From Prochlorococcus sp. MIT 0801 (lineage in GTDB: Bacteria > Cyanobacteriota > Cyanobacteriia > PCC-6307 > Cyanobiaceae), in contig NZ_CP007754.1 in NCBI RefSeq assembly GCF_000757865.1, positions 1,140,001 through 1,172,000 on the forward strand: a stretch of DNA of 32,000 nucleotides, written 5' to 3'. This document shows, piece after piece, positions 5,595 to 31,327 of the stretch. The position numbers were made by a program, and so were the translations under genes. The stretch's first letter is position 1, and every line of letters begins with the position of its first letter. The notes beneath the pieces were generated by a model. The model was not told the origin of the DNA. It worked only from the letters and a program-made list of their open reading frames with translations, and did no database searches.

Positions 5595-5936
5595 TCAAGC
5601 GAAAGCAGGATTTTTCTCAAAAAATTTATTATTTGAATTTTCAATCAACTGAAGAAATTGATTTTTTACGAACGATCCAAGGCCAAGATCAATAAGGATG
5701 TGCAAAACAAGAGAAATGCAAAAAACTGCATAAAAAATTAAATGACAAATGAAAATATTTACAAAATCATTTTTTGCCTTTTCTTCATTTGCTTCCGTTT
5801 CGTTCAAAATTGATGGAACAAAATCTCCGAATGAATTTACTCTTGCTGATTCAACCGATCCAAATGGCATTAATTCCTGATCTTTTACTCTTAGAGCAGC
5901 AGTAGCAGTCATAACGGCAACCTTAACTAAAACCAC
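5595..5936 (-). CDS. hypothetical membrane protein
   Basis: Track ORF. One clear hydrophobic stretch, FICHLIFYAVFCISLVLHILI. Start uncertain. Confidence 0.35.
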   Translation of the reverse strand: MVLVKVAVMTATAALRVKDQELMPFGSVESARVNSFGDFVPSILNETEANEEKAKNDFVNIFICHLIFYAVFCISLVLHILIDLGLGSFVKNQFLQLIENSNNKFFEKNPAFA

Positions 5937-6170
5937 CCTACTTTCTTATTAATAAATTAGGCTTATAACTTGATTATTTCGTTTTAAATCTTGTTCAAAT
6001 AAGCCATTGTTTCCCGTTTTTTCTCCATCCTCATTGGAATTTTTTGAACATCAAATCTTTTTTAATTTTAGAAATCTTTTCTTCAAGAAAGCTGTGATGG
6101 AACAAAAATCGAAAAGTTTGTTTCAATTAAATCGAATGAGAGAAAAAATTCAACCCGTTGTATTAGCTCA

Positions 6171-6192
6171 AAAAAAAAGGGGCTAATGCCCC
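6171..6192 (-). terminator. intrinsic terminator for 6223-6420
   Basis: GGGGC-ATTA-GCCCC on the minus strand followed by U8 (plus-strand A8 at 6171-6178). Confidence 0.7.
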
Positions 6193-6222
6193 CTAGAGAA
6201 ATCAGCTTTTAATTTCAAAAAT

Positions 6223-6420
6223 CTACTTTGTAAAAAGAGAACTCTTTACTCCAGCTTGTTCCCACTTTTTAATTGTTGGTCTTAGGAATGACATGGGTAG
6301 AGCTGTCAAAATTGCAAATGAAACAACAAGGATTAAGTCAGTAGTGAAATGATTTATCCCAAGATCTGTTCCAGCAAGCCAGAGCCATGGGAATGCAGAA
6401 GCAAATAAATTAGTTAGCAT
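6223..6420 (-). CDS. small membrane protein (65 aa, 2 TM)
   Basis: Track ORF with a terminator 30 nt downstream. Confidence 0.5.
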   Translation of the reverse strand: MLTNLFASAFPWLWLAGTDLGINHFTTDLILVVSFAILTALPMSFLRPTIKKWEQAGVKSSLFTK

Positions 6421-6523
6421 AAATTCTCATCGATTAATCCGAAGCATATAAGGCCATTCTATTAATTTTATTCATTACTTAGTAAAAATTATCACAACCT
6501 CTTCTCATCGCAAGGAATGTATT

Positions 6524-6673
6524 TACTTGAACCAGAACACAATGGGAATAAATTGTCGATAATTGCACCTGCACAGATGCCATAGATGACTCAAATCATG
6601 GCAACACGGCCGTCATATTTTGAGCTTTGTCTGAATTGAATATAGAGGACAATTCAGTAATTGTTTCTTTCAT
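6524..6673 (-). pseudogene. degenerate hli-like relic
   Basis: Minus strand reads MKETITELSSIFNSDKAQ, then a frame shift to KYDGRVAMI, an in-frame TGA where Gly is expected, then VIYGICAGAIIDNLFP. This resembles the NGRxAMxG + TM core of hli genes but is disrupted. Confidence 0.3.
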
Positions 6674-7165
6674 TAGTTAAGCAATTAAATAAAGATTAAC
6701 AACCAATTATTTGAATTAAATTACGAGACTTATATTGATAAGGTTAGTATTAGTTCTTACAGCTATACACAAATAAATAGCTACTTTATAATTGCTTGCC
6801 TTCATACCACCATAAAGTAGACGATTTGAACTCTGCCTTAGATCAAAAAAAGTTTTTGAAGAATCAATAAAATATGATTTGGTTTTGTTGTGATTTTTTA
6901 ATTGAAATCAAGGCTAAGTCATAAGAAGATAAACCAACCTCATTTTCAAAAGAGTTGAGATTTACTATTTCTTTGGTTAGTAATAACTGCTTTTGCAATA
7001 TTCATTCAAATCACCTTAATATTTTTACTAAAAGCTTGATCTACATCTTCTAATAGATATGAAAAAACTTTAAAGAAATTTTCGTTAAAAGTAAAGATAG
7101 CTTTAGTAGCTAATAAATCTAATCTAAAAATCAGTATTTCTTGCTTAAACAGAATAGTTGTTCAT

Positions 7166-7456
7166 CTAGAATGATTCATCAGTAACCTCTTTCGTTTTTA
7201 TAATTTTCCTCTTTGTTTTTTTAAGCTTATAACCAAACTCAATGAGTTGATGATATGTCAATTTAGCTTGCAAAGCGCTTAAAGAGAGACGTTTTTCATC
7301 ATCTTTCTGAAGATAAAAATTTCCTCTATTATTGTTATTTGTCTCGATGGTAATAATCTCTTTTCCTTTCTTAAGAATCCAAGGCTCTTTTAAATAATTA
7401 TCTTCCCCCTCTTTCAGCTCCCATGGAACTGATGCTGACTTTTTCTTTAATGGCAT
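7166..7456 (-). CDS. hypothetical basic protein (96 aa)
   Basis: Track ORF. No family recognised. Confidence 0.5.
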   Translation of the reverse strand: MPLKKKSASVPWELKEGEDNYLKEPWILKKGKEIITIETNNNNRGNFYLQKDDEKRLSLSALQAKLTYHQLIEFGYKLKKTKRKIIKTKEVTDESF

Positions 7457-7995
7457 TTTAAAAAATTAAACCCCATATTATTTATTTTACACTCTAATCA
7501 TGAGATAATCCAGTCAACTCTAATAATACTCAAAGTTATTGTGATAATAACAAGTATCTAATCCTTTCAAAATTAGAACTTTTATCAGCATTTATGTTGT
7601 CTTACCTAGACCAATCTTTTGATTGGAAGCAATTAATTGAGGTTCAAGTGGATTACCCCTATTCTCATATTTATTTTATAGATTTGAAATTAACAAATTT
7701 CATCACAACTGATAAACAATCATAAACAACTCGAGATGACCAAAAAAAATCACATAATTCCTAAAATCGAAAAAACATCAAACACACTCTTGAAACCTTC
7801 AAGACAGATTAGACAAGAGTCGGTTTAACTCCTAATAGAGATTGAAGGGGACTCCTGCATAACACCCTCTCACTTCTCGATACAACTATTTTAGAATTAT
7901 TTTGAATGCACAGCGAGCATAACAGCGAGTGATATTTCTCTCGGGGACCTTACAAGAAAAAAGCTTCTGTAAATAATGTAGATCAAGAGATAAGG

Positions 7996-8499: not shown

Positions 8500-8521
8500 A
8501 TCAACCTAATGAAATCAAAAA

Positions 8522-8551
8522 GACCTCTTCTGTAATGACAGAGAAGAGGTC
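8522..8551. terminator. bidirectional intrinsic terminator
   Basis: 10-bp stem GACCTCTTCT/AGAAGAGGTC flanked by an A-run and a T-run. Lies between convergent 8218-8499 and the hli array. Confidence 0.8.
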
Positions 8552-8579
8552 CTTTTTGATTAGATCTTAAGAATCAGAA

Positions 8580-8705
8580 TTAAACTATTCCTGGAATGAT
8601 CCAGCCTGTTATTCCGTAGTTAATCACAGCTGCAAAGAAGCCCATCATCGCAAGGCGGCCATTCATTTGCTCGGCTGTTTTCCAGTAGTTAGTTTCTTTG
8701 TTCAT
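8580..8705 (-). CDS. hli: high-light-inducible protein (41 aa)
   Basis: MNKETNYWKTAEQMNGRLAMMGFFAAVINYGITGWIIPGIV. NGRxAMxGF motif plus a single TM. The track ORF over-extends the 5' end. Confidence 0.9.
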   Translation of the reverse strand: MNKETNYWKTAEQMNGRLAMMGFFAAVINYGITGWIIPGIV

Positions 8706-8851
8706 TACACAACACCTGGAATGATTTGACCTGTTGTTAGATATGCACCGATGAGTGCCCAGCATCCAACAAATGCTGCGTAACCATTGAGTCTTTCAGC
8801 AATTACTTTGCCTTCTTCTACTCTTGGAGTTTCAGTCGTTTGTTTTTTCAT
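8705..8851 (-). CDS. hli: high-light-inducible protein (48 aa)
   Basis: MKKQTTETPRVEEGKVIAERLNGYAAFVGCWALIGAYLTTGQIIPGVV. TAATG overlaps on both sides. Confidence 0.9.
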   Translation of the reverse strand: MKKQTTETPRVEEGKVIAERLNGYAAFVGCWALIGAYLTTGQIIPGVV

Positions 8852-8970
8852 TAAACAACACCTGGGATAAGTTGACCGGTTGTTAGGTAGATACCTGTTA
8901 GTAGAACGAATGCCATCATGGCTGGTCTGCCGATGCTTCTTTCTAGGATTGTTTTGTTAGATGGTTGCAT
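8851..8970 (-). CDS. hli: high-light-inducible protein (39 aa)
   Basis: MQPSNKTILERSIGRPAMMAFVLLTGIYLTTGQLIPGVV. Confidence 0.85.
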   Translation of the reverse strand: MQPSNKTILERSIGRPAMMAFVLLTGIYLTTGQLIPGVV

Positions 8971-8990
8971 TGTTATTAGTAGTTATTGGT

Positions 8991-9197
8991 TTAGAAAATT
9001 CCAGGAATGATTTGACCTGTTGTGAAGTATGAAACCAAAAGACTGACCATTCCGATCATTGCCCAACGGCCATTTGTCTTTTCTGCTTCTTCTGGATAGC
9101 TGGTGTAGTCCTCTACAAGCTGTGGCTGTGTTTCACGGCCAAAGATGTTTTGCTTGCCGTACTCAGTGATTACCTGAGAAGAAGATGAACTTGTCAT
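8991..9197 (-). CDS. hli: high-light-inducible protein, long N-terminus (68 aa)
   Basis: MTSSSSSQVITEYGKQ...AEKTNGRWAMIGMVSLLVSYFTTGQIIPGIF. The start was chosen at the ATG homologous to the start of 18654-18761; the track start at 9227 adds 10 aa. Confidence 0.85.
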   Translation of the reverse strand: MTSSSSSQVITEYGKQNIFGRETQPQLVEDYTSYPEEAEKTNGRWAMIGMVSLLVSYFTTGQIIPGIF

Positions 9198-9252
9198 TAC
9201 TGAAATTGCGTTGATGTGAATGAACATAAAGTATTAACTTTGTTGATCAAAG

Positions 9253-9266
9253 ATACGGTCGGGTAC
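9253..9266 (-). promoter_or_regulatory. NtcA-like site GTA-N8-TAT upstream of hli array
   Basis: Minus strand reads GTACCCGACCGTAT, 56-69 nt upstream of the first hli ATG. Conserved at 18586-18599. Confidence 0.3.
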
Positions 9267-9478
9267 GGCTTCTTCTCATCCTTAATAGCTCTAAACCTCA
9301 AACACTAAATACAACAACTAATTAGAGAGATATTTATCCAATGATTAGATCTATTGATGACTCTAATAAGTATAAATAGCCCGAACTGGTTAGCACTACT
9401 TCAACCGTCCTACTCGTATTGAGGGCTTCTTTTATATTTAAATCATCTTTTTATACCAACCAGATCAAACTTTGAGTC

Positions 9479-9589
9479 ATGCTTGCAATCAACAAAACTA
9501 CTGCTGCAAAACTAATCGTTCTCTGGAATCTTCCTGCACTACTTCTATTAATTGGTGCTTATGAAGTTGGTTCTACCGTATTTGCTTAA
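9479..9589 (+). CDS. 36-aa single-TM micro-peptide
   Basis: MLAINKTTAAKLIVLWNLPALLLLIGAYEVGSTVFA. Paralogs at 18261-18371, 14601-14711 and 20945-21055. Confidence 0.55.
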   Translation: MLAINKTTAAKLIVLWNLPALLLLIGAYEVGSTVFA

Positions 9590-9595
9590 CTTACA

Positions 9596-9760
9596 ATGAC
9601 ATCATCTGATAACAGTCCAAAGAATTGGTCCGAGTGGAACAACACAAAGCATTTCACTGATTATTCAAGAGATTCAGGAACAGGCAAATTTGTTCGCTTT
9701 ACCATTGCTGCCTTACTCTTCGTTCCAGTTGGATTCCTCGCTTACATGACTACTATCTAG
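9596..9760 (+). CDS. 54-aa tail-anchored peptide
   Basis: MTSSDNSPKNWSEWNNTKHFTDYSRDSGTGKFVRFTIAALLFVPVGFLAYMTTI. Duplicate at 18090-18254. Confidence 0.55.
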   Translation: MTSSDNSPKNWSEWNNTKHFTDYSRDSGTGKFVRFTIAALLFVPVGFLAYMTTI

Positions 9761-9908: not shown

Positions 9909-10250
9909 TTAGGCGGTTCCCCATTGACAAGAGAGTTCACATTCAGTCAAATTTGTTTGTTCAAGACGACTTAATATCCTAGCCATGTCTACAGAGGAGA
10001 GACTTCCATCAGTATTCCATTTGAGAGTAGTTTTACGCTGAAATGGAATGTTGTCCTTCGATTGTCCAGAAGGAAGAAATTTGATAGTGTTGTTTTCGAT
10101 AAAATCTAAAAACGATTTAGCACTGTGTAGGTCCCCAGTGTAAGTGCATTGATTTGCAGAACAAGCTCTAAAGATTCGTCCCGACAATCCATCCAAGCAA
10201 TGAATTGATCCACCATTAACAGTTACATGGAATGGCTTTCTAAGTGACAT
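9909..10250 (-). CDS. Cys-rich hypothetical protein (113 aa), paralog of 21791-22138
   Basis: Track ORF. Roughly 70% identical by eye to the 115-aa copy, and the upstream non-coding region is also similar. Confidence 0.75.
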   Translation of the reverse strand: MSLRKPFHVTVNGGSIHCLDGLSGRIFRACSANQCTYTGDLHSAKSFLDFIENNTIKFLPSGQSKDNIPFQRKTTLKWNTDGSLSSVDMARILSRLEQTNLTECELSCQWGTA

Positions 10251-10497
10251 AGCTAATACTCCATTCCTAGAATGACAAGCATTTTTGTATCAACCATTAC
10301 AAAAAAACAATAAGTCTTAATGCTCAATCAGTCATTCCAGTCAATATCACCAAATTCCTAGTCAGTTCTGTATGAACTTATTTGCTCTAAATATTTAACC
10401 GTTAAATATTTATTTTTGCAGTTCTGTGCTGAAAAAGTTTCGAAGCTTTTGATCACACTCGGTCAACAAACTGCAAGAGACCATTCAATCTATCCAT

Positions 10498-10680
10498 TTA
10501 TTTGTAGTAATTCACAAGATCAACAATAAGAACAGCTAAAAGAACACCTCCAAGAATAAAGGGCAAAAAAGGATATTTGGCTGAGAGATTGCTTATAAAA
10601 CCAGCTTTCTTTTCCTTTTGCTTTATCTTCTTTTCTCTAGGAGGTAATCCCAAAACTTTTCTTCTTTTGGCTTCTCCCAT
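10498..10680 (-). CDS. MGEAKRR-type Lys-rich tail-anchored peptide (60 aa)
   Basis: Internal ATG of the track ORF gives MGEAKRRKVLGLPPREKKIKQKEKK...LPFILGGVLLAVLIVDLVNYYK. Paralog at 16572-16772. Confidence 0.6.
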   Translation of the reverse strand: MGEAKRRKVLGLPPREKKIKQKEKKAGFISNLSAKYPFLPFILGGVLLAVLIVDLVNYYK

Positions 10681-11114
10681 ATTTAGTAAAAAAAGGTCTG
10701 ATGCTTCAAGATAATTCAACTGTCAAACTAAGCATAAAAACAATAAGAAACTCTACTTTTATTAACAAGAGACATGAATTGAATAGGCGTTGAACAGTGC
10801 AAGATATGTCTCTTCTGTAATTTAGGCTTCGCAAGCTCAGGACACTTATCACCTACAAAAGATGATATCCAAACCTATCGGTTAGCAGATATAAATCTCT
10901 ATCTATTTATCTATTGATAAACTTTTTCTTCTCCCTATAAAAAAGGCAAAGAAACAAACCTTCGAATACAGAAGTAAGGACTAAAAACAATTATATGTAT
11001 AAATGGTGAATCAGACTAAACCGATATAAGGACTAAGTTGAAAATCTTATCTATTCCTGAATTTCATCTATAACTGTTATTTTAAACGATTTTGTTATTT
11101 TCCTTCCTAAGGTT

Positions 11115-11537
11115 TTAATAATCTATTTTTGATTGCCTATTCCTTTTTAATTCACCTCTTTTCTTCTTTGACTCAATTCTCCTCCTCTGTGATGAGCGAG
11201 TAGGGATTGTCTCCCTTCTTTTCTTTGGAGGTGGCTTTAAAAGCTCTCGTAAGGTTGAAGTAAGTCTAATTAAAGCTAATTGTCTATTTTGATATTGTGT
11301 TCTTTTATCTTGAACAGCTATGCAAATACAACCATTAGAAAGCTTGACTTCATCCTGAATTGAGATTCTATATTTCTGGTATGGAGTTAAAGTTTTTGAT
11401 TCAGATACGTTAAATACAATTTCAGCTCGACTGTCTGTCTTATTTACGTTCTGTCCACCAGCTCCTGATGATCTAGAGAATCTCCACTTTATTTCATTAC
11501 CTGGTATTTCAAGCTTAGTATTAATCCTAAGATTCAT
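11115..11537 (-). CDS. arfB: ArfB (YaeJ/ICT1-like) peptidyl-tRNA hydrolase, alternative ribosome-rescue factor B
   Basis: GGQ motif SSGAGGQNVNK about 25 residues from the N-terminus. 140 aa with a strongly basic C-terminal tail (KKRRETIPTRSSQRRRIESKKKRGELKRNRQ), typical of ArfB. Confidence 0.85.
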   Translation of the reverse strand: MNLRINTKLEIPGNEIKWRFSRSSGAGGQNVNKTDSRAEIVFNVSESKTLTPYQKYRISIQDEVKLSNGCICIAVQDKRTQYQNRQLALIRLTSTLRELLKPPPKKRRETIPTRSSQRRRIESKKKRGELKRNRQSKIDY

Positions 11538-11546
11538 TTGTCTACT

Positions 11547-12035
11547 TTATCCAGCCAATCGAAGTGAGCTCATTTCTAATGGATTAGGCTTTTTGGGTTC
11601 TTTAATCTCATTCGGAGAAAAGAACATTAATGACTGAGCATTGCTTACCTCTCGACATTTTTTATTAGGGCCACAAACAAATAAATATGTATCCACATCA
11701 ACACTTGCATCTGGAAGCTTTATACAAGTAGCGCCGAAGTTCTTTTCAAGCAATACCCACATTTTCTTTTTATCTATACATTCTTGGAAGAGGTCATTAG
11801 GATTATTTTCACTAATAACACCTCTCACATTTAAAACAAAATAACGATTAATAAAAATTTCTTTTGCCTTAATTTCAGACTCTTTGCTAAGTATTCGTGC
11901 CATATAATGGCAATCATCCAAAACATATTCCTGACTATCTAATTTAGATAGTATCCATCCAATATCTTTCGCACTTAACCCTTTTTCAATAAGAAAAAAT
12001 TCGAAGGCTCGTTTATCAGTAGGACCTCTCCCCAT
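11547..12035 (-). CDS. hypothetical protein (162 aa), possible N-terminal HTH
   Basis: Track ORF. Stop is 9 nt before the arfB start. The N-terminus KRAFEFFLIEKGLSAKDIGWILSKL looks HTH-like. No family recognised. Confidence 0.65.
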   Translation of the reverse strand: MGRGPTDKRAFEFFLIEKGLSAKDIGWILSKLDSQEYVLDDCHYMARILSKESEIKAKEIFINRYFVLNVRGVISENNPNDLFQECIDKKKMWVLLEKNFGATCIKLPDASVDVDTYLFVCGPNKKCREVSNAQSLMFFSPNEIKEPKKPNPLEMSSLRLAG

Positions 12036-12162: not shown

Positions 12163-13086
12163 CTAGTTACAAATTGATATTTCTGCTATTCCATATTGCA
12201 TTTGCCAATGCCCCATACTCCAATCCCCTGGGTTTTGTGTTAGGTCATTCAACCCCCCACTATCTACTAAAGAGAAATAATCTTCACTTCCATTATTATC
12301 ACTAGATTGAACAGGTATATTAACCTCCGATCCATCTGCCCATTTTAAATCACCTTCATTATCAGCATCAGTCAGGCCAACCCAATATGCTGTAGCACCA
12401 GCTGTATTATTTTCAGGATGTACCCATTTTATATTTTGAACAATCCACTCACTTTCTTCCAAGTCATTTAAGGTTACTAAATGGCCATTAAGTTTTTGAG
12501 CGTTAGACTCAGATTCTTCCCAAGTTGGTCCTTCAACAACAGCATAAGCAGAGCAACCACGTTCAAGATATGAGCCTTCTACCACAAACTCTTCTGACTC
12601 AATTCTCGCTTGTAGTTCATTCCCTTGTCTTGTTTGACATATAAACCCTAGGCAATCTGTTAAGTTTGTCCCTGTCTGACCTTTAAAGCTATACGTTAAT
12701 TCACTACTATTAGTCGCCAATATAAAAGTAGGCAATATATTTGTATCGGTAGGTATTGCACTAATTAATCCTGTTCCTGATGCTCCACCACAACTATTAG
12801 ATCCATCTGATTGGATTTGATAAGAATTTAAATTGCTTGGAGTAAATGTACCTACGTTACCTGTATCAGATTTATTAATTTCACATTCAGTATGAATTTG
12901 TTTTATGGCTGCCAATGCAGCAGTCGCTTGAGCTTTTCTCTGGAAGCAGCTAAACGTGGGAATTGCAATCGCAGACAGGACTGCAAGCACTGACACAACA
13001 ACTACAAGTTCAATTAAAGAAAAACCTTCCTCACCTTGCTTACTCAAGAGCTTCCTGAAGAGTTTTAGCTTTAAACTTTGCTCCAT
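12163..13086 (-). CDS. type IV pilin-like protein with C-terminal C-type lectin domain (307 aa)
   Basis: Prepilin motif G/FSLIELVVVVSVLAVLSAIAIP after a 21-aa leader. The C-terminal 130 aa show CTLD hallmarks: TWEESESNAQKLNGHLVTLNDLEESEWI, YWVGLTDADNEGDLKWADGSEV, flanking Cys. Confidence 0.75.
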   Translation of the reverse strand: MEQSLKLKLFRKLLSKQGEEGFSLIELVVVVSVLAVLSAIAIPTFSCFQRKAQATAALAAIKQIHTECEINKSDTGNVGTFTPSNLNSYQIQSDGSNSCGGASGTGLISAIPTDTNILPTFILATNSSELTYSFKGQTGTNLTDCLGFICQTRQGNELQARIESEEFVVEGSYLERGCSAYAVVEGPTWEESESNAQKLNGHLVTLNDLEESEWIVQNIKWVHPENNTAGATAYWVGLTDADNEGDLKWADGSEVNIPVQSSDNNGSEDYFSLVDSGGLNDLTQNPGDWSMGHWQMQYGIAEISICN

Positions 13087-13354: not shown

Positions 13355-13573
13355 ATGACTTTTGCGACGGCATATAGCTATAGCGACAGACAAATTTTTG
13401 ATCTTAAGACTTTAATAGAAGGAATCAGATTTATTATTGTTAATTCTATTTTGGCCTTTATTTTTTTATTTCTTACTGTTGAAGAACTTGAATGGGCAAC
13501 ATTCTCATATAGAGAAAAAATTACAGATAAGGTTATTGACAAAACATCATGGAATATCAAAACATTAATTTAA
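13355..13573 (+). CDS. hypothetical membrane protein (72 aa)
   Basis: Track ORF with TM FIIVNSILAFIFLFLTV. The antisense ORF 13378-13560 is judged a shadow. Confidence 0.35.
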   Translation: MTFATAYSYSDRQIFDLKTLIEGIRFIIVNSILAFIFLFLTVEELEWATFSYREKITDKVIDKTSWNIKTLI

Positions 13574-13636
13574 TTCTGCTCTAAATTCTTTTCTAATCAA
13601 AGTGATCTAAAAATCAAATCAGTATAAATTACTGTT

Positions 13637-13784
13637 TTATCTTGCATTTTTTGCGGGAGGCATCTAAACCTCCCTAAAGCCTGAGCCAGTAATCAAAGTG
13701 TAGGCAAAGACCCTGGGAAAGGTTCAATTGAAAATGGTGCTATCACCCAAGTATTACTACAGTTGGGTTAATTAATAACTAATA
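13637..13784 (+). promoter_or_regulatory. conserved structured 5' leader of the DUF2905 operon
   Basis: TATAAAT at 13623-13629. Hairpins GGGAGG-N8-CCTCCC (13655-13674) and ACCCAA-N12-TTGGGT (13745-13768). Duplicated at 23915-24077. Confidence 0.45.
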
Positions 13785-13988
13785 ATGCAAAGGATACTAA
13801 TTACACTTGGACTTGTAATCGCTTCGATTGGTGTTCTATATCCTTACTTAAAACAAATAGGCTTGGGAAGATTACCTGGGGACGTCATTCTTAGAGGTCA
13901 GAATTCAACATTTTATTTCCCAGTAGTCAGCTGTATTGCCATTAGTCTGCTACTGACAGTCATTTTTAACTTATTCCGATCGTCATAA
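13785..13988 (+). CDS. DUF2905-family small membrane protein (67 aa)
   Basis: MQRILITLGLVIASIGVLYPYLKQIGLGRLPGDVILRGQNSTFYFPVVSCIAISLLLTVIFNLFRSS. The LGRLPGD...FYFP pattern is typical of DUF2905. Confidence 0.85.
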   Translation: MQRILITLGLVIASIGVLYPYLKQIGLGRLPGDVILRGQNSTFYFPVVSCIAISLLLTVIFNLFRSS

Positions 13989-14158
13989 TGAGTTTCGCTG
14001 ATAACTGGGCAAGGATATTTGTTGTAATTATGTTTCTTACGTTTGGAGAAACTCAGATCATTGGAGATATCATTCCAAATCTGATTGCTTTAAACTTGTT
14101 TCTTGGAGCGATTGGATATTTTGCTTTAACTGGGAAAATGGCTGAGATGTTTGGCTAA
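13988..14158 (+). CDS. IIPNL-family membrane peptide, truncated allele (56 aa)
   Basis: TAATG overlap. MSFADNWARIFVVIMFLTFGETQIIGDIIPNLIALNLFLGAIGYFALTGKMAEMFG. TAA sits where copy B (24281-24577) has TGG. Confidence 0.65.
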   Translation: MSFADNWARIFVVIMFLTFGETQIIGDIIPNLIALNLFLGAIGYFALTGKMAEMFG

Positions 14159-18089: not shown

Positions 18090-18254
18090 TTAGATAGTAG
18101 TCATGTAAGCAAGAAAGCCAACTGGAACGAAGAGTAAGGCAGCAATGGTAAAGCGAACAAATTTGCCTGTACCTGAATCTCTTGAATAATCAGTGAAATG
18201 CTTTGTGTTGTTCCACTCGGACCAATTCTTTGGGCTGTTATCAGATGATGTCAT
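18090..18254 (-). CDS. 54-aa tail-anchored peptide (duplicate of 9596-9760)
   Basis: Same reading frame, with TAA stop instead of TAG. Confidence 0.55.
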   Translation of the reverse strand: MTSSDNSPKNWSEWNNTKHFTDYSRDSGTGKFVRFTIAALLFVPVGFLAYMTTI

Positions 18255-18260
18255 TGTTAG

Positions 18261-18371
18261 TTAAGCAAATACGGTAGTACCAACTTCATAAGCACCAGCT
18301 AATAAAAAAAGCGCAGGAAGATTCCAGAGAACAATTAGTTTTGCAGCTGTAGATTTGTTGAGTGCAAGCAT
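18261..18371 (-). CDS. 36-aa single-TM micro-peptide (duplicate of 9479-9589)
   Basis: MLALNKSTAAKLIVLWNLPALFLLAGAYEVGTTVFA. Confidence 0.55.
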   Translation of the reverse strand: MLALNKSTAAKLIVLWNLPALFLLAGAYEVGTTVFA

Positions 18372-18585
18372 GACTAAAAGTTTGGATCTAGTTGGTTTAT
18401 AAATATTTGACAAATATGAATAGAGGCTCTCAATTGCAGTAGGACTGTTGAAGTAGGGCTAACCAGTTCGGGCTATTTATACTTATAAGGGTTATCAATA
18501 GATCTAATCATTGGATCAAGATCTCTCTAATTAGTTTCTGTCATTAGGGTTTTAGACATATTTCTATGAAGTATTAGAAGAAGCC

Positions 18586-18599
18586 GTACCTGACCGTAT
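18586..18599 (+). promoter_or_regulatory. NtcA-like site GTA-N8-TAT upstream of hli array
   Basis: GTACCTGACCGTAT, 55-68 nt upstream of ATG 18654. Confidence 0.3.
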
Positions 18600-18653
18600 C
18601 TTTGATCAACAAAGTTAATACTTTATGTTTATGGCAACAACGCAATTCAAGTA

Positions 18654-18761
18654 ATGACTCCAGAAGCAGAAAAGTTTAACGGTTGGGCAGCAATGCTTGG
18701 CTTCGTAGCAGCCTTCGGTGCATATGCAACAACAGGTCAAATCATTCCTGGAATTTTTTAA
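18654..18761 (+). CDS. hli: high-light-inducible protein (35 aa)
   Basis: MTPEAEKFNGWAAMLGFVAAFGAYATTGQIIPGIF. Confidence 0.85.
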   Translation: MTPEAEKFNGWAAMLGFVAAFGAYATTGQIIPGIF

Positions 18762-18781
18762 ACCAATAACTACTAATAACA

Positions 18782-18901
18782 ATGCAACCATCTAACAAAA
18801 CAATCCTAGAAAGAAGCATCGGCAGACCAGCCATGATGGCATTCGTTCTACTAACAGGTGTTTACCTAACAACCGGTCAACTTATCCCAGGTGTTGTTTA
18901 A
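18782..18901 (+). CDS. hli: high-light-inducible protein (39 aa)
   Basis: MQPSNKTILERSIGRPAMMAFVLLTGVYLTTGQLIPGVV. Confidence 0.85.
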   Translation: MQPSNKTILERSIGRPAMMAFVLLTGVYLTTGQLIPGVV

Positions 18902-19050
18902 TGACTACTGAAAACAACAACAACAGCAGAAATATCGATCCTGAAAAGGTAACTGCTGAAAGACTTAACGGTTATGCAGCTTTGTTTGGATGCATTGCTT
19001 TGGTTGGTGCTTATGCAACAACAGGTCAAATTATTCCAGGTTTCGTTTAA
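18901..19050 (+). CDS. hli: high-light-inducible protein (49 aa)
   Basis: MTTENNNNSRNIDPEKVTAERLNGYAALFGCIALVGAYATTGQIIPGFV. TAATG overlaps. No counterpart in the left array. Confidence 0.9.
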   Translation: MTTENNNNSRNIDPEKVTAERLNGYAALFGCIALVGAYATTGQIIPGFV

Positions 19051-19196
19051 TGAAAAATCAAACCACTGAAACACCAAGAGTAGAAGAAGGCAAAGTGTTT
19101 GCTGAACGACTCAATGGTCTAGCTGCCTCTGTTGGATGCTTAGCCCTTATTGGCGCATACCTAACAACAGGTCAAATCATTCCAGGTTTTGTTTAA
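19050..19196 (+). CDS. hli: high-light-inducible protein (48 aa)
   Basis: MKNQTTETPRVEEGKVFAERLNGLAASVGCLALIGAYLTTGQIIPGFV. Confidence 0.9.
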   Translation: MKNQTTETPRVEEGKVFAERLNGLAASVGCLALIGAYLTTGQIIPGFV

Positions 19197-19321
19197 TGAA
19201 CAAAGAAACTAACTACTGGAAAACAGCCGAGCAAATGAATGGCCGCCTTGCGATGATGGGCTTCTTTGCTGCTGTGATTAACTACGGATTAACAGGCTGG
19301 ATCATTCCAGGAATCGTATAG
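19196..19321 (+). CDS. hli: high-light-inducible protein (41 aa)
   Basis: MNKETNYWKTAEQMNGRLAMMGFFAAVINYGLTGWIIPGIV. Confidence 0.9.
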   Translation: MNKETNYWKTAEQMNGRLAMMGFFAAVINYGLTGWIIPGIV

Positions 19322-19347
19322 TACTAGCTTTTAAATCAAATTAAAAA

Positions 19348-19379
19348 AGGTCTCTTCTCTGTCATTACGGAAGAGGCCT
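19348..19379 (+). terminator. intrinsic terminator of the right hli array
   Basis: 10-bp stem AGGTCTCTTC/GAAGAGGCCT (one G-U pair) followed by T6. Confidence 0.8.
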
Positions 19380-19603
19380 TTTTTAGTGCTTTATAGACTA
19401 TGAGTAACTAAAACTGGAGATATTCAGCTTTGAAAACACTTGTTCTAAAAATGTATTAATTGGCAAAACTACAGAATAGTCATATAAAAGGACTGACCTG
19501 AATCACCCCTAGTTGTTTAGATGAGTAATTGGCTGTCAAATAATATTACTTTCTTTCAAAGGGTTGAACTTATCTTGGATTTTAAATTTGCTCTTAGATT
19601 TTT

Positions 19604-21790: not shown

Positions 21791-22138
21791 CTACAAACTC
21801 GAAGTTCCCCATTCGCAAGAAAGATCACATTCGGTCAAATTTGTTTTTTCAAGACGATTCAATATTCTTGCCATATCAATAGAAGATAGACTTCCGTCTT
21901 CATTCCATTTAAGAGTTGTTTTACGTTGAGACGGGATCTTTTCGTTCTTTTTTCTAGAAGGAAGAAATTTATTAGTTTTGTTTTCGATAAAGTCTAAAAA
22001 CGATTTTGCACCGTGAAGATTACCTGTATAAGTGCATTGATTCAAAGAACAAGCTCTAAAAATTCTTCCAGACAAGCCCTCTAAACAAAGAATTGATCCA
22101 CCCTGAGGTGTTATGTGGAGTGGTTTTCTAAGGGGCAT
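21791..22138 (-). CDS. Cys-rich hypothetical protein (115 aa), paralog of 9909-10250
   Basis: Track ORF: MPLRKPLHITPQGGSILCLEGLSGRIFRACSLNQCTYTG... Confidence 0.75.
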   Translation of the reverse strand: MPLRKPLHITPQGGSILCLEGLSGRIFRACSLNQCTYTGNLHGAKSFLDFIENKTNKFLPSRKKNEKIPSQRKTTLKWNEDGSLSSIDMARILNRLEKTNLTECDLSCEWGTSSL

Positions 22139-22354
22139 CGCAAATGCTCCATTTCTAAAGGGATGTTATTTTTGTATCAACGGCTACAGAATATCAATGA
22201 GTCTTAATGCCTAAAAATCAAGGCTCTTTAACCTCGTCTCATCCTGAATCCCTTTTATATCAGTTTATTAGGGCTTAATAATGAATCAATCATTGATCTG
22301 CAGACTTTTCAATCGTTAAGGGGCCGTTCAGAGCAATCACACAAAGAAAGCAAT

Positions 22355-23781: not shown

Positions 23782-23861
23782 GGGGAGGCATTCCATCCAA
23801 TATGACTTTGAATGCCTTCCCCTCTACTATCAGAACCGAGTCTTAAAATAAAAGTTCTGAT
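23782..23861 (-). promoter_or_regulatory. two-hairpin leader upstream of P5
   Basis: 12-bp stem GGGGAAGGCATTC/GAATGCCTCCCC (23782-23822) followed on the minus strand by AACATTTTT and then the SD. 8-bp stem ATCAGAAC/GTTCTGAT (23829-23861). Confidence 0.4.
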
Positions 23862-23914
23862 AATTCTTTTCTAATCAAAGTGATCTAAAAATCAAATCAG
23901 TATAAATTACTGTT

Positions 23915-24077
23915 TTATCTTGCATTTTTTGCGGGAGGCATCTAAACCTCCCTAAAGCCTGAGCCAGTACTCAAAGTGTAGGCAGAGACCCTAGGAAAGG
24001 TTTAATTGAAAACGTAATAATTGAAAATGTTGCTATCACCCAAGTATTACTACAGTTGGGTTAATTAATAACTAATA
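23915..24077 (+). promoter_or_regulatory. conserved structured 5' leader of the DUF2905 operon (copy B)
   Basis: Same hairpin GGGAGG-N8-CCTCCC at 23933-23952. Confidence 0.45.
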
Positions 24078-24281
24078 ATGCAAAGGATACTAATTACACT
24101 TGGACTTGTAATCGCTTCGATTGGTGTTCTATATCCTTACTTAAAACAAATAGGCTTGGGAAGATTACCTGGGGACATCATTCTTAGAGGTCAGAATTCA
24201 ACATTTTATTTCCCAGTGGTCAGCTGTATTGCCATTAGTCTGCTACTTACAGTCATTTTTAACTTATTCCGATCGTCATAA
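24078..24281 (+). CDS. DUF2905-family small membrane protein (67 aa)
   Basis: One aa different from 13785-13988. Confidence 0.85.
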   Translation: MQRILITLGLVIASIGVLYPYLKQIGLGRLPGDIILRGQNSTFYFPVVSCIAISLLLTVIFNLFRSS

Positions 24282-24577
24282 TGAGTTTCGCTGATAACTG
24301 GGTAAGAATATTTGTTGTGATTATGTTTCTTACGTTTGGAGAAGCTCAGATCATTGTAGATATCGTTCCCAATCTGATTGTTTTTGGTTTGTTTCTTGGA
24401 GCGATTGGATACTTTGCTTCAACCGGAAAAATGGCTGAAATGTTCGGCTGGAAAAACAAGAAAGGTGATCGCTCTAGATTATGGACTAAACCAGAAAACA
24501 ACTCAGACCAACTCAGCAAACCAAATCCAGTGAGTTCCCCTAAAAGCCAGTCAGTGCAGTCTCTTATGAATTTTTAA
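24281..24577 (+). CDS. IIPNL-family membrane protein, full-length allele (98 aa)
   Basis: TAATG overlap. MSFADNWVRIFVVIMFLTFGEAQIIVDIVPNLIVFGLFLGAIGYFASTGKMAEMFGWKNKK... Confidence 0.7.
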   Translation: MSFADNWVRIFVVIMFLTFGEAQIIVDIVPNLIVFGLFLGAIGYFASTGKMAEMFGWKNKKGDRSRLWTKPENNSDQLSKPNPVSSPKSQSVQSLMNF

Positions 24578-25871: not shown

Positions 25872-26507
25872 TTGATGACTTCATCTTATCAGGAATCCTT
25901 ATCCAAAGAAAGTCAATTATTTATAAAAGTTTTAGAAAATATGTATCATGCGAGTCATATAGTTAATATTCCTTCAGGAGAAAAAGTATCATTAAGCAAA
26001 AGTTATATTTGGTTAGTTGTAAGAGGTGTTATAAAAATACAAACGTTAAATCTAGATGGAGAAATATCAATACTAGGTTTAGTCAGTAGTGATAATGTTT
26101 TTGGCGAAACATTATCCACATCCAATCCATACGAAGCTTATGCAATGGGCAACTGTGATCTTTTACCAATTTCTTTGATTGAAATTGAACAAAACCCAAC
26201 ATTATCTATATCCATCTTTAATGCACTCAGGAAAACTTATCAGCAAACAGAAATGCTTTTATCCATCAAGTCAATCAGACGAATGGAAGACCGAATTAAG
26301 TCCTTGTTTATATTTTTAGCTGAGAGATATGGACGAGAATGTAAAGATGGAATTGTTATAGATATTCGCCTTACACATCAAGAAATAGCTAATTTATTAT
26401 CAACAACTAGAGTTACAGTTACAAGAATAATGAGTGATTTGAAAGAATCAAAATGGTTAATACTTGAAAGAAGCAAATACGTACTAACACAGCGATCAAC
26501 TATATAA
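25872..26507 (+). CDS. ptrA: Crp/Fnr-family transcriptional regulator, PtrA-like
   Basis: cNMP-binding-like N-terminal domain plus C-terminal HTH THQEIANLLSTTRVTVTRIMSDL. Lies next to phoBR, as expected for the phosphate-stress regulator PtrA of marine picocyanobacteria. Confidence 0.7.
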   Translation: MMTSSYQESLSKESQLFIKVLENMYHASHIVNIPSGEKVSLSKSYIWLVVRGVIKIQTLNLDGEISILGLVSSDNVFGETLSTSNPYEAYAMGNCDLLPISLIEIEQNPTLSISIFNALRKTYQQTEMLLSIKSIRRMEDRIKSLFIFLAERYGRECKDGIVIDIRLTHQEIANLLSTTRVTVTRIMSDLKESKWLILERSKYVLTQRSTI

Positions 26508-26585
26508 GTATTCTTTTCAAGATCAGCTCGCTTCATTCAATTTCCTTATAAATCAACTATACTTGATATAATCAAGGATATTAGT

Positions 26586-27335
26586 TTGATACCTGTGATC
26601 AGTCCTGTCTCTGACAAGCTATCCAAGGCTAAAAAAAGGCTTCTTATTGTTGAAGACGATAAAAGTATTCGTGAAACACTCCGTGAAGCTCTTGTTGCAG
26701 AAGGTTATGCAGTCGAAGTTTGTAAGACTGGTGATGAAGCTCAGACAAGAATTTTTTCTCAGTTCGACACAAGCCAAAATCTTGATTTAGTTGTTTTAGA
26801 CTTGATGTTACCCAACCTGAATGGGATTGAGCTTTGTAGAAGAGTCCGAAAAAACAATATAAAAACACCAATTCTTATTGTCAGTGCAAAAGACAGCGAA
26901 TCAGACCGTGTATTGGGTTTAGAAGTTGGAGCCGACGATTATTTGATAAAGCCATTTGGCTTAAATGAATTAATTGCTAGGTGTCGTGCAATTTTAAGAA
27001 GGTCTGAAACTAATCATGATCAAACTCAAGATTCTTCCCAAGTCCTTAGCTTTAAAAATATTTCCTTATATAAACAGGAATACCGAGTCACTAAAAACAA
27101 TAAGGAAATAAATCTTGCCCCAAAGGAATACAAAATCATGGAGTTGTTTCTGCAGAATCCTAAGCGGGTGTGGAGTCGTGATCAACTTTTAGAACGAATT
27201 TGGGGGATTGATTATGTGGGAGATTCTAAAACTGTAGATGTACACATTAGGTGGATTAGAGAAAAGATAGAGGAAGATGCATCGGCTCCAAGCTATATAA
27301 AAACCGTTAGAGGTTTTGGCTACAAATTTGGGTAA
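26586..27335 (+). CDS. phoB: OmpR-family response regulator PhoB
   Basis: Receiver domain (LLIVEDD, DLVVLDLMLP, SAKD..., KPF) plus winged-helix output (VDVHIRWIREKI, TVRGFGYKF). The track start is TTG; a GTG 9 nt later is an alternative. Confidence 0.9.
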   Translation: MIPVISPVSDKLSKAKKRLLIVEDDKSIRETLREALVAEGYAVEVCKTGDEAQTRIFSQFDTSQNLDLVVLDLMLPNLNGIELCRRVRKNNIKTPILIVSAKDSESDRVLGLEVGADDYLIKPFGLNELIARCRAILRRSETNHDQTQDSSQVLSFKNISLYKQEYRVTKNNKEINLAPKEYKIMELFLQNPKRVWSRDQLLERIWGIDYVGDSKTVDVHIRWIREKIEEDASAPSYIKTVRGFGYKFG

Positions 27336-27344
27336 TGGCGAATT

Positions 27345-28478
27345 ATGTTAAAAAAAACATTTAAAAAACTATTTAGATTAATAAAAAAGATTCTAAGTAT
27401 TAGAAGAGTTGGAAGGACCACAAAGAATTTTTTAAAATGGTTTAATCGTCAACAAGAAGTTGATGTCACTCAACTTTTAAATTGGGTAGATGATATTAAT
27501 CAGGGTTGGATTATTATTACGTCTAAGAACAAAATCATGTATATCAATAAGCAAGCTAAGAAATTATTGTCTATTAAAAAGGATTCAAAAATATTAGGGA
27601 AATCCCTCTATAAACTCAAAATCTCAGACGAGATAAAAAGAGAAATTCAAAAGCTTAATAGCTCAAAGACATTTAAAAGTATTTCTTATTTCTTTAATGA
27701 AAAAGAGCTTGAGATTTCTATAATGCCAAGCTCAAAATCCACTACGCTAATACTTTTAACTAATAAAAGATCTCTAGAATATCAGCGTCAATTACAAGAG
27801 AGAATGTTAGGTGATGCCGCTCATGAATTGAAAACCCCATTAACTGCACTCATGTTACTTGGTGATAGATTGGATAATTTGGTTAAGAAAAAGGATAGGC
27901 CTTTAATAAAGAGATTAAGAAAAGAAATTTTAAGACTTAAGTTGATGGTGAATGATTTATTGGAGTTGTCGAGATTAGTCAATGCATCTTCAGTTGAGGA
28001 TGAATTTACAAAAAAAATTAATATGGAAGAAATTATACTCAGTTCATGGAATACCCTTAAGCCGCTGGCAGATAAGAAAAAATTAAATTTAGTTAATACA
28101 TCGAAAACTAATTCTTTAATAGAGGGTAATTCTGAGAAATTATATAGGGTTGTTTTTAATTTGCTTGATAATGCAATTAGATATTCCCCTGATTCAGCTA
28201 ACATCAATACTCAAATTTATGAAGATGATAAACATCTAATTTTAAGTATCAAAGATGAAGGGCCAGGGTTAAGTAAAGATGATCTGAAAAATATGTTTCA
28301 ACGTTTTTATAGAGGTGATCCATCTAGGTATAAAAACAAACGTATAGGTAGTGGTTTAGGTCTCTCAATAGCTCAACAAATAGTTGTTAATCACAAAGGG
28401 GCTATTGAAGCTTCTAATGATACTAATGGTGGTACTTTGATGAAAATCAAATTACCTCTACAAAAACAGATTGTTTAG
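27345..28478 (+). CDS. phoR: sensor histidine kinase PhoR
   Basis: H-box HELKTPLTAL, N-box LLDNAIRYS, G-boxes DEGPGL and GSGLGLSIA. 9 nt after the phoB stop. No obvious N-terminal TM segment. Confidence 0.9.
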   Translation: MLKKTFKKLFRLIKKILSIRRVGRTTKNFLKWFNRQQEVDVTQLLNWVDDINQGWIIITSKNKIMYINKQAKKLLSIKKDSKILGKSLYKLKISDEIKREIQKLNSSKTFKSISYFFNEKELEISIMPSSKSTTLILLTNKRSLEYQRQLQERMLGDAAHELKTPLTALMLLGDRLDNLVKKKDRPLIKRLRKEILRLKLMVNDLLELSRLVNASSVEDEFTKKINMEEIILSSWNTLKPLADKKKLNLVNTSKTNSLIEGNSEKLYRVVFNLLDNAIRYSPDSANINTQIYEDDKHLILSIKDEGPGLSKDDLKNMFQRFYRGDPSRYKNKRIGSGLGLSIAQQIVVNHKGAIEASNDTNGGTLMKIKLPLQKQIV

Positions 28479-28819
28479 TAAATATCTGGACAGTTTTTTC
28501 TTGCTATAAGTCTTTTCAAGTCTCGAACAGCATCACCAGTTAATAGATAACTACCATCATTTTCTTCGTACCAATAAGTTTGTCTTTTACCAATTGCAGA
28601 CCAGAATCTATCTGGGAGTGATGGCATATAAAAATCAACAAAGGCTGAAACACCGTATTCATTTTCAGACCTCATATCATCACATGCCTTATTCATTTCT
28701 TCTACATTATGTATGTAGTATCTTGCTGCTTGCCAAAAGTATTTATCCTCTGCTTTTGATGTTTCTAGCAAGCAAAAAAATAGATAACTAAAAATAGCTA
28801 AAAGATATTTTCTCTTCAT
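28475..28819 (-). CDS. secreted hypothetical protein (114 aa) inside the Pho cluster
   Basis: Signal peptide MKRKYLLAIFSYLFFCLLETSKA. Its 3' end overlaps the phoR stop by 4 nt (convergent). Confidence 0.6.
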   Translation of the reverse strand: MKRKYLLAIFSYLFFCLLETSKAEDKYFWQAARYYIHNVEEMNKACDDMRSENEYGVSAFVDFYMPSLPDRFWSAIGKRQTYWYEENDGSYLLTGDAVRDLKRLIARKNCPDIY

Positions 28820-28847
28820 GAATTTAAATACATCGAATTTAATGGAT

Positions 28848-28883
28848 AAAAAAAAAAGGGTACAACATCTATATGCTGTACCC
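28848..28883 (-). terminator. intrinsic terminator of the phosphatase gene
   Basis: Stem GGGTACA/TGTACCC (28858-28883) followed on the minus strand by U10. Confidence 0.7.
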
Positions 28884-28902
28884 TCTCTCTTAGTTGATTG
28901 AT

Positions 28903-31185: not shown

Positions 31186-31225
31186 CTAATTATTAGCTGA
31201 CTGAAGTTAAGAGAAAAACTTTTTC

Positions 31226-31266
31226 AATTAAAAATTTGATTAGCAACAAGTTAAGAGGCGTTTAAC
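31226..31266 (-). promoter_or_regulatory. Pho box upstream of the phosphatase gene
   Basis: Minus strand reads GTTAAACG-cct-CTTAACTT-gtt-GCTAATCA-aat-TTTTAATT. Four 8-mers at exact 11-bp phasing. Confidence 0.55.
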
Positions 31267-31282
31267 AACTATGTATAAAAAA

Positions 31283-31303
31283 AGGCCCCTAATGTAGGGG
31301 CCT
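31283..31303. terminator. bidirectional terminator after the porin gene
   Basis: 9-bp stem AGGCCCCTA/TAGGGGCCT flanked by A7 and T5. Confidence 0.8.
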
Positions 31304-31327
31304 TTTTGAAAAGTTTAAGTAAGAAGT

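Follow-up and report, generated by a model that had tools for sequence, protein, structure and literature searches.

A predicted modular pilin with a C-type-lectin-like head, and paralogs that share its stem, in Prochlorococcus sp. MIT 0801

What would the pili of Prochlorococcus, an organism regarded as strictly free-living, hold on to? A testable lead lies on the reverse strand of a 32,000-nt stretch of contig NZ_CP007754.1 of Prochlorococcus sp. MIT 0801, which was analyzed here as a whole (the window): an open reading frame (ORF) whose product, here called the lectin-pilin, joins a type IV pilin module to a C-type-lectin-like domain (CTLD). MIT 0801 belongs to low-light clade I (LLI) and has a closed genome of 1,929,203 bp. 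We propose with moderate confidence that the lectin-pilin is a modular minor pilin that is processed by PilD and displays a predicted ligand-binding head on the PilA1 pilus. Pili of marine picocyanobacteria have recently been shown to matter for flotation, grazer escape and phage encounter, with only the plain major pilin having been studied; if the proposal is true, a specific binding head on the pilus would allow selective attachment to polysaccharide particles, cells, vesicles or predators, with a bearing on carbon export, Prochlorococcus-heterotroph associations and the debate over a particle-attached lifestyle.

A pilin module and a lectin-like head in one protein

The ORF list showed an intact frame of 307 aa, with an in-frame stop two codons upstream of its ATG. 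The product was 100% identical to AIQ97520.1 / WP_052041182.1 of Prochlorococcus sp. MIT 0801, which bore out the picocyanobacterial host proposed in an earlier, sequence-only reading of this DNA. RefSeq gives WP_052041182.1 as 307 aa and names it 'lectin-like protein', and GenBank AIQ97520.1 is the same gene with the start called 13 codons late. The leader pattern M-E-x-S-L-K-L-K-L was kept in homologs P0009, P0015, P0034, P0035 and P0081, and because the longer leader is conserved, we take the ATG at 13086 to be the true start.

The class III prepilin motif claimed in the sequence-only reading was present: residues 18-43 read GEEG/FSLIELVVVVSVLAVLSAIAIP, in which the signal KQGEEG21/F22SLIE26LVVVV places Phe at +1 and Glu at +5 (E26). 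Both N_methyl (PF07963; 25.6 bits, cutoff 21.2) and the NCBIfam prepilin cleavage/methylation model TIGR02532 (24.6 bits, cutoff 16.3) matched above their cutoffs over aa 20-42. At 21 aa, the leader was similar in length to that of MIT 0801 PilA1 (25 aa). Sequence searches of PDB aligned aa 15-90 with the N-termini of geopilin, PilA and PpdD, and the NCBIfam equivalog models for pilins and pseudopilins matched at the N-terminus only, far under their cutoffs. A type II pseudopilin, the alternative offered in the sequence-only reading, is not supported by these scores (GspG TIGR01710, 27.6 bits against a cutoff of 88.85; GspH TIGR01708, 17.5 against 80).

An AlphaFold2 (AF2) model built on a 101-sequence family alignment (mean predicted local distance difference test, pLDDT, 82.9) consisted, from the N-terminus, of a leader helix, a long alpha1 helix (aa 24-75), a five-stranded sheet (aa 89-139) and two short helices around C145 and C150, with C145-x4-C150 closing the pilin module. 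This is the lollipop fold of pilins, in which a long alpha1 packs on an antiparallel beta-sheet. Confidence in the pilin module was 75-94, and 85-93 in the sheet strands; what had been described as a Ser/Thr/Gly/Asn-rich middle is thus the pilin module's globular beta-sheet and not a low-complexity spacer. The module was also the best-conserved part of the family, with C68 and C150 invariant. Confidence and conservation were both lowest in the linker that follows (aa 151-170; pLDDT 71 at aa 151-160), where column entropy was high.

Beyond the linker, the Pfam family Lectin_C matched aa 188-279 at 42.5 bits (cutoff 22.6, E 1.2e-10), and the CTLD signatures singled out previously, TWEESESNAQKLNGHLVTLNDLEESEWI (aa 188-215) and YWVGLTDADNEGDLKWADGSEV (aa 234-255), were both found there. 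The modeled head (aa 174-304) had the topology beta-beta-alpha-beta-alpha-beta-beta-beta-beta. Foldseek searches of PDB matched it to the carbohydrate-recognition domains (CRDs) of CD23, mincle, MGL, Endo180 and SRCL (E 5e-8 to 8e-7), with per-target TM-scores of 0.70-0.79 for CD23, mincle, MGL and SRCL and the best E value, 4.7e-08, for CD23 (2h2r). Sequence searches of PDB with aa 167-289 likewise returned animal C-type lectin domains. The only cysteines of the head, C178 and C306, flank the domain and would tie its two ends together; its C-terminus is the family tail GIAEISICN. Profile hidden Markov models, structure prediction and structure search agreed, and the fusion of a pilin with a CTLD that had been read from the letters of the DNA stands.

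A pilin of this kind would need an assembly machine, and prepilin peptidase, PilB, PilC, PilQ and the major pilin PilA1 were all present in MIT 0801. Supplementary Data 1 of Aguilo-Ferretjans et al. (2021; PMC7994388) lists PilA1 (Pro_MIT0801_1246, 173 aa), PilC (_1242), PilB (_1244) and PilQ (_1235) for this strain; PilD is not listed there, nor are ComEA and ComEC, and a competence pilus was rejected on the latter ground. Using as query a pilD gene that adjoins a short pilin on L013, from a single-cell genome of Prochlorococcus, we identified the PilD of MIT 0801 as AIQ97340.1 (P0160), an 'A24 family peptidase' with Peptidase_A24 and A24_N domains. A contig whose PilD is identical carries pilD, then a lipoprotein-like gene and then pilA1. 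The lectin-pilin and PilA1 were 47% identical over the first 103 aa, and in the mature alpha1-N, FSLIELVVVV(S/A)VLAVLSAIAIP, 22 of 23 residues were identical, a likeness that is expected of subunits sharing a filament core and a peptidase. None of PilA1, PilB, PilC and PilQ is listed for the other cultured LLI strains NATL1A, NATL2A and PAC1 (PMC7994388).

Paralogs with one stem and different heads

In the sequence-only reading the gene was taken for a singleton, yet MIT 0801 has four family genes, this one among them, that share a scaffold (the stem) and carry different heads. These are AIQ97406 (P0009), the lectin-pilin AIQ97520 and the adjacent pair AIQ97601 and AIQ97602, of which the first is Pro_MIT0801_1509 of PMC7994388 and the second is P0032. 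A homolog search returned 338 sequences in all, mostly from marine metagenomes and single-cell genomes. In the closed genome, P0009 and the lectin-pilin were 95-100% identical over aa 21-140 and 10-50% over aa 141-300; identity fell from 100% to 35% across aa 141-160, and the two resembled each other again at the last residues (G-I/L-A-E-x-x-I-C-N). The metagenomic homolog P0002 showed the opposite pattern, with a stem 50-95% identical to that of the lectin-pilin per 20-residue interval and a head 75-100% identical.

When 84 full-length family members were compared in pairs, stem and head similarity proved nearly uncoupled. Stems at least 85% identical were joined to heads that were less than 45% identical or unalignable in 38 pairs, and stems less than 65% identical to heads 65-93% identical in 37 pairs; stem and head identity were almost uncorrelated (Spearman rho 0.13). 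In every variant, the breakpoint lay just after the conserved D/E-C-L-x-x-x-C, which is the module boundary in the model.

The heads fell into at least five large clusters plus singletons, and most were CTLDs, although for most head types other than that of the lectin-pilin the Pfam match spans only the conserved first half of the domain. Column entropy in the 101-sequence alignment peaked in the long-loop region (aa 221-298). The textbook EPN...WND pair occurred in 2 of 121 family members (P0013 and P0116), and WND was kept in 26. Three kinds of non-CTLD head were found on the same stem: an F5/8-type-C (discoidin-like) domain at 27.0 bits, just under its cutoff of 28.2 (L006); a short Cys/Pro-rich module (P0106, L007); and a 'GSDSGLSCRE...CDGR' module (P0035, P0039, P0064, P0109, L008 and L009:6933-7889), for which the AF2 model of P0035, built on a 4-sequence alignment, had a pLDDT of 40 and was unusable.

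Multiple copies per genome were also seen elsewhere. Of two Prochlorococcus single-cell genomes, AG-436-O09 carried four genes whose 5' parts of ~390-430 nt were identical or nearly so and whose 3' parts were unrelated, and AG-676-M04 carried three family genes in tandem. In two other contigs, family genes lay 2-10 kb from T2SSE/T2SSF genes. Copy numbers in draft genomes and metagenome-assembled genomes are probably underestimates, because a multi-copy scaffold breaks short-read assemblies. In the genome-contig scan, which covered genomes other than MIT 0801 and used scaffold-specific patterns that are silent on pilin-CTLD fusions on other scaffolds, the scaffold was found only in three Prochlorococcus single-cell genomes.

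In AG-676-M04, four long pilin genes lie within 11 kb (L009:601-1386, 5920-6870, 6933-7889 and 10004-10975), three with the family scaffold (two CTLD heads and one head of another, unassigned type) and a fourth of 261 aa with a Gly/Asn-rich middle and a different C-terminal part. In Prochlorococcus AG-422-K10, a short pilin (L023:8945) is followed directly by a pilin ORF (L023:10043) of ~367 aa counted from its GFSLIE motif, on a different scaffold with 31% identity to the lectin-pilin over aa 7-99. Other Prochlorococcus clades may have long modular pilins built on different scaffolds.

To place the head itself, we searched 1.84 billion cluster representatives with the head alone using HMMER and obtained 2074 matches at E<=1e-3 and 383 at E<=1e-10. 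A pilin motif was present in only 1 of the 150 best representatives. The best relatives instead carried 2-4 tandem CTLDs together with RTX repeats, serralysin-type C-terminal secretion domains, DUF5648 or dockerin. Since its closest CTLD relatives sit in RTX-type secreted proteins, we read the head as an extracellular module; by sequence it belongs to an extracellular CTLD subfamily that is widespread in bacteria and was here grafted onto a pilin. Many of the relatives P0241-P0390 begin with (I/V)RGNS(L/I)YT(I/V)VDGP(S/T)W, apparently an abundant class of secreted bacterial multi-lectin proteins.

Two other sources of the head or of its variability were considered and rejected. A phage origin found no match in a tblastn search of 50,697 phage records; BFVD returned only CTLDs of eukaryotic viruses, and PHROG matches were confined to the pilin N-terminus. 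Diversification by a diversity-generating retroelement (DGR) was rejected because none of the ORFs in the window could encode a reverse transcriptase; only the lectin-pilin, a histidine kinase and a phytase-like protein reach 300 aa there.

Taken together, the pattern suggests that the stem is homogenized within a genome while heads are exchanged, with gene conversion inferred from protein identity only; homogenization would follow from the need of the scaffold to fit one filament and one machine. That four subunits share a stem and differ in their heads likewise suggests that the pili may be used to grip specific targets. More tentatively, we see a possible 'one stem, many heads' system of polymorphic pilus adhesins, in which gene conversion would keep the stems identical and islands would shuffle a shared pool of heads; that pool, on the same tentative footing, would comprise CTLDs of several subtypes, a discoidin-like domain and two or more unassigned modules. 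If so, each cell would have its own small set of ligand specificities, which could partition niches among particles, polysaccharides and partner cells, or fuel an arms race with the phages and grazers that bind pili. The family also offers clonable heads for glycan arrays and a natural experiment on how type IV pili gain functions.

Proposed display of the head and competing explanations

The head has the fold of a CTLD and is a C-type lectin in the strict sense only in part. Alignment to SRCL/CL-P1 (2ox9) placed Q260, D263, E268, D269, N280 and D281 at the positions of the QPD...E...WND motif, and these six residues were invariant in all eight proteins of this head type, which are 65-84% identical overall. 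The EDC position reads E268-D269-Y270, with E268 kept; the post-WND Cys is absent, and a unique insertion, GDWSMGHWQM, follows the WND position in all eight. The invariance of these residues and of the insertion speaks for a binding site that is conserved where the canonical one would lie. The function predicted from the sequence as most likely is Ca2+-dependent sugar binding, and a Ca2+-bound carbohydrate would be the likeliest ligand, because five acidic or amide residues stand at the canonical site and seawater is rich in Ca2+.

The features of the sequence, its predicted fold, the genes for the machinery and the pattern across the family lead us to infer processing, incorporation, location and ligand as follows. 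The precursor would insert into the inner membrane, where PilD would cut between G21 and F22 and methylate F22. The hydrophobic alpha1-N would then dock the lectin-pilin into the PilA1 filament (PilB, PilC, PilQ) as a low-abundance subunit, leaving the bulky head exposed, probably at the tip and micrometres from the cell, by analogy with other bulky modular pilins such as PilB and PilC of Streptococcus sanguinis (PMC8179133). The head would bind an extracellular ligand through its variable long-loop face, and the four paralogs could provide four specificities per cell on one filament type.

Several observations weigh against this proposal. At the canonical EPN/QPD position, the same alignment shows S261-S262-D263, without the cis-proline, and the WND position reads L279-N280-D281; both canonical CTLD disulfides (C1-C4 and C2-C3) are absent. 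Many CTLDs with such changes in motif and disulfides bind proteins or other ligands, and glycan binding is put forward as a prediction precisely because the canonical Ca2+/sugar motif and the disulfides are missing. Counted in accession order, ~180 genes separate the lectin-pilin gene from the pil cluster and pilA1, and there was no other pilin or pil gene within the 32-kb window. Finally, three AG-436-O09 contigs (L005, L007 and L008) start at the same base inside the conserved 5' scaffold, and the 100% identity of 5' ends in this genome may in part reflect a collapsed repeat copied onto contig ends; the closed MIT 0801 genome therefore carries the weight of the argument from stem identity.

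The missing motif and disulfides, together with the rarity of EPN plus WND in the family, would also fit a head that is no sugar binder, forming instead a variable protein-binding or decoy surface whose swapping serves evasion or recognition of partner cells. Variable CTLD folds serve elsewhere as diversifiable binding scaffolds, as in the target proteins of DGRs, and this family varies most in the long loop and swaps heads between scaffolds. Such a surface would have been diversified because phages and grazers recognize pili, and pili do raise phage encounter in marine picocyanobacteria (bioRxiv 10.1101/2025.09.20.677514). We nevertheless consider a decoy unlikely: the strict conservation of the six site residues within the head type points to a fixed site and away from drift, one of the other heads on this stem resembles a galactose-binding F5/8 type C domain, and the window has no DGR reverse transcriptase. 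Somewhat less probable still is that the lectin-pilin is a major or abundant shaft subunit, which would either form its own lectin-coated filament or decorate the whole PilA1 filament. Its leader and alpha1 are as PilA1-like as a co-polymerizing subunit would need, four paralogs are present but the sequences examined contain no obvious set of classical minor pilins, and the linker could place the head outside the shaft, as is discussed as possible in PMC8179133. On the other hand, a head of 135 residues on every subunit would be hard to pack. The short PilA1 adjoins pilD, with PilB, PilC and PilQ a few gene numbers away, and is the subunit detected in related strains (PMC7994388); the lectin-pilin gene, by contrast, is far from the machinery genes.

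That same distance from the pil cluster could be taken to mean that the class III signal serves only for PilD processing and for anchoring or release, making the protein a surface or periplasmic lectin that never enters an external pilus. An arrangement of this kind would be likened to the archaeal bindosome or to a type II secretion pseudopilin. Proteins that have pilin-like signals without being subunits of a pilus do exist (PMC3047682). We judge this very unlikely here, given that not just the signal but the whole globular pilin module is there, and is conserved more than any other part, that alpha1-N matches the major pilin while the GspG and GspH scores fall far under their cutoffs, and that family genes lie near T2SSE/T2SSF genes in other genomes. 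The least credible explanation is that this island gene is decaying or has no function, being a chance fusion that island turnover left behind. The flexible region is indeed rich in repeats, its flanks are duplicated elsewhere with different cargo, and other cultured LLI strains are without pili (PMC7994388). Against decay, the ORF is intact, many of the 338 homologs from metagenomes and single-cell genomes are full length, the cysteines and the residues of the core are invariant, and across divergent scaffolds the conservation of orthologous heads reaches 84-93%. A PilD-processed minor pilin with an exposed head accordingly remains the explanation that we prefer.

Genomic surroundings and known systems

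Table 1. Features of the lectin-pilin gene, in window positions (aa, residues of the 307-aa product)
Feature	Position	Strand	Evidence
Complete lectin-pilin gene, stop codon included	12163..13086	-	ORF list; upstream in-frame stop; conserved leader; RefSeq 307 aa
Leader peptide, aa 1-21 (MEQSLKLKLFRKLLSKQGEEG), ending in Gly-1 at the predicted PilD site G21/F22	13024..13086	-	N_methyl and TIGR02532 at aa 20-42
Pilin module (scaffold), aa 22-150	12637..13023	-	AF2 secondary structure; PDB sequence matches; family conservation
Linker, aa 151-170, with the scaffold/head breakpoint at its start	12577..12636	-	pLDDT; column entropy; identity drop against P0009
CTLD head, aa 171-307, closed by C178 and C306	12166..12576	-	Pfam Lectin_C; AF2 topology; Foldseek
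CTLD long-loop region, aa 221-298, presumed ligand-binding face	12193..12426	-	Peak column entropy in the family alignment
Candidate Ca2+/ligand site, aa 260-281	12244..12309	-	HMMER alignment to SRCL/CL-P1 (2ox9); conserved in 8/8 of the head type

The positions of the gene and its parts are collected in Table 1. In GenBank, AIQ97520.1 is named 'nuclease (SNase-like) protein', an identity that we rejected since Pfam gave no SNase match at E <= 1. The paralog AIQ97602.1 bears the same wrong GenBank name; RefSeq has mended both the naming and the start of the lectin-pilin gene. In GCA_003283665.1, a real, unrelated SNase gene (L002:15613-16011) has a family member ~5 kb away; it may be the source of the name, which was probably transferred in error during annotation. 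Promoter and terminator scans gave background level only.

Directly downstream on the same strand are two ORFs at 11547-12035 and 11115-11537, a 162-aa product without a family match and a 140-aa RF-1-domain protein (an ArfB-like peptidyl-tRNA hydrolase with the GGQ motif). Direct repeats, 81-98% identical, pair 9916-10323 with 21804-22210 and 13565-14158 with 23843-24451 and enclose cargo that differs: a 73-aa ORF, the ArfB-like gene, the 162-aa ORF and the lectin-pilin gene in the first interval (~3.2 kb), and a 96-aa ORF and a PDZ-domain protein in the second (~1.6 kb). The two intervals look like copies of a single island 'slot' that received different contents after its duplication.

The lectin-pilin gene also sits between the arms of a large inverted repeat (8500-9760 and 18090-19400; arms 86-95% complementary), each arm a tandem array with a period of ~140 nt. 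Because the small proteins encoded in them carry a chlorophyll a/b-binding-like motif (Pfam, 21.5 bits, just under the cutoff of 22.3), these are probably arrays of high-light-inducible (hli) genes. Farther along, 25872-31942 encodes two regulators, one of the Crp family and the other an OmpR-type response regulator, together with a histidine kinase, a 760-aa secreted phytase-like/choice-of-anchor-I protein and the end of a porin-like ORF; the set resembles a phosphate-acquisition island and would be phoB/phoR-like.

Aguilo-Ferretjans et al. (PMC7994388) list MIT 0801 as piliated, and their subject is the same organism group and machinery as ours; the function shown there (drag or flotation, and escape from grazing) concerns PilA1, and the main text is without a lectin head. 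Their 'PilE' column contains the family member Pro_MIT0801_1509 and its homolog Pro_MIT9201_0077 from the HLII strain MIT9201 (BLAST E 3e-06 and 0.017). Against PilE of Synechococcus CC9311, only 48 residues of alpha1 aligned, at 27% identity, and because the similarity is confined to these residues we do not read the label as orthology. The literature that we searched gave nothing linking Prochlorococcus pilins with C-type lectins or MIT0801 with pili, and papers naming both Prochlorococcus and C-type lectins were unrelated.

As for the head, it shares with animal CRDs (CD23, mincle, MGL, SRCL/CL-P1 and langerin) the fold, a WIGL-type core (YWVGLTD), the alpha1 and alpha2 helices and, in four to five positions of Ca2+ site 2, residues that are acidic or amide. 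Unlike them, it lacks the EPN/QPD cis-proline and the C1-C4 and C2-C3 disulfides, has LND for WND, and carries the single N-to-C cysteine pair C178 and C306 and the insertion GDWSMGHWQM. Its closest relatives, up to 54% identical, are the RTX multi-CTLD proteins (Lectin_C + HemolysinCabind + Peptidase_M10_C), with which it has the signature RG-S-Y-V-GP-W-AE-NA-LGG-L-IN in common; these are not pilins and would leave the cell by type I secretion rather than filament assembly.

As a whole protein, the lectin-pilin most resembles the modular pilins defined in 2021 by Raynaud et al. (PMC8179133), in that a pilin module (aa 22-150), a linker (aa 151-170) and a Lectin_C head (aa 171-307) follow one another. 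In S. sanguinis, PilB bears a von Willebrand factor A (vWA) module and PilC a concanavalin-A (ConA)-like lectin module that binds glycans (PMC8179133, PMC9934059). Like these, the lectin-pilin combines a small pilin module and a short linker with a bulky, independently recognizable binding domain, and in our proposal it would likewise enter the filament through alpha1, be displayed at the tip and use a lectin module for glycans. Unlike theirs, its head is C-type-lectin-like rather than ConA-like or vWA, and whereas the lectin module of S. sanguinis PilC binds glycans, the lectin-pilin is described here from its sequence and a model. Because its host is a diderm planktonic cyanobacterium, unlike S. 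sanguinis, it would also have to pass the PilQ secretin, and several paralogs with one scaffold and exchanged heads have not been described for S. sanguinis. The architecture IPR012902-IPR001304 (N-terminal methylation motif plus C-type lectin-like), to which that of the lectin-pilin is identical, is listed for three proteins in Dataset S1 of PMC8179133; these and the RefSeq entries are catalog names only, without description, organism context, paralog analysis or function. Modular pilins, glycan-binding lectin modules on pilins and the N_methyl plus C-type-lectin-like architecture are thus already known, and it is the head-swapping multigene family that may be new.

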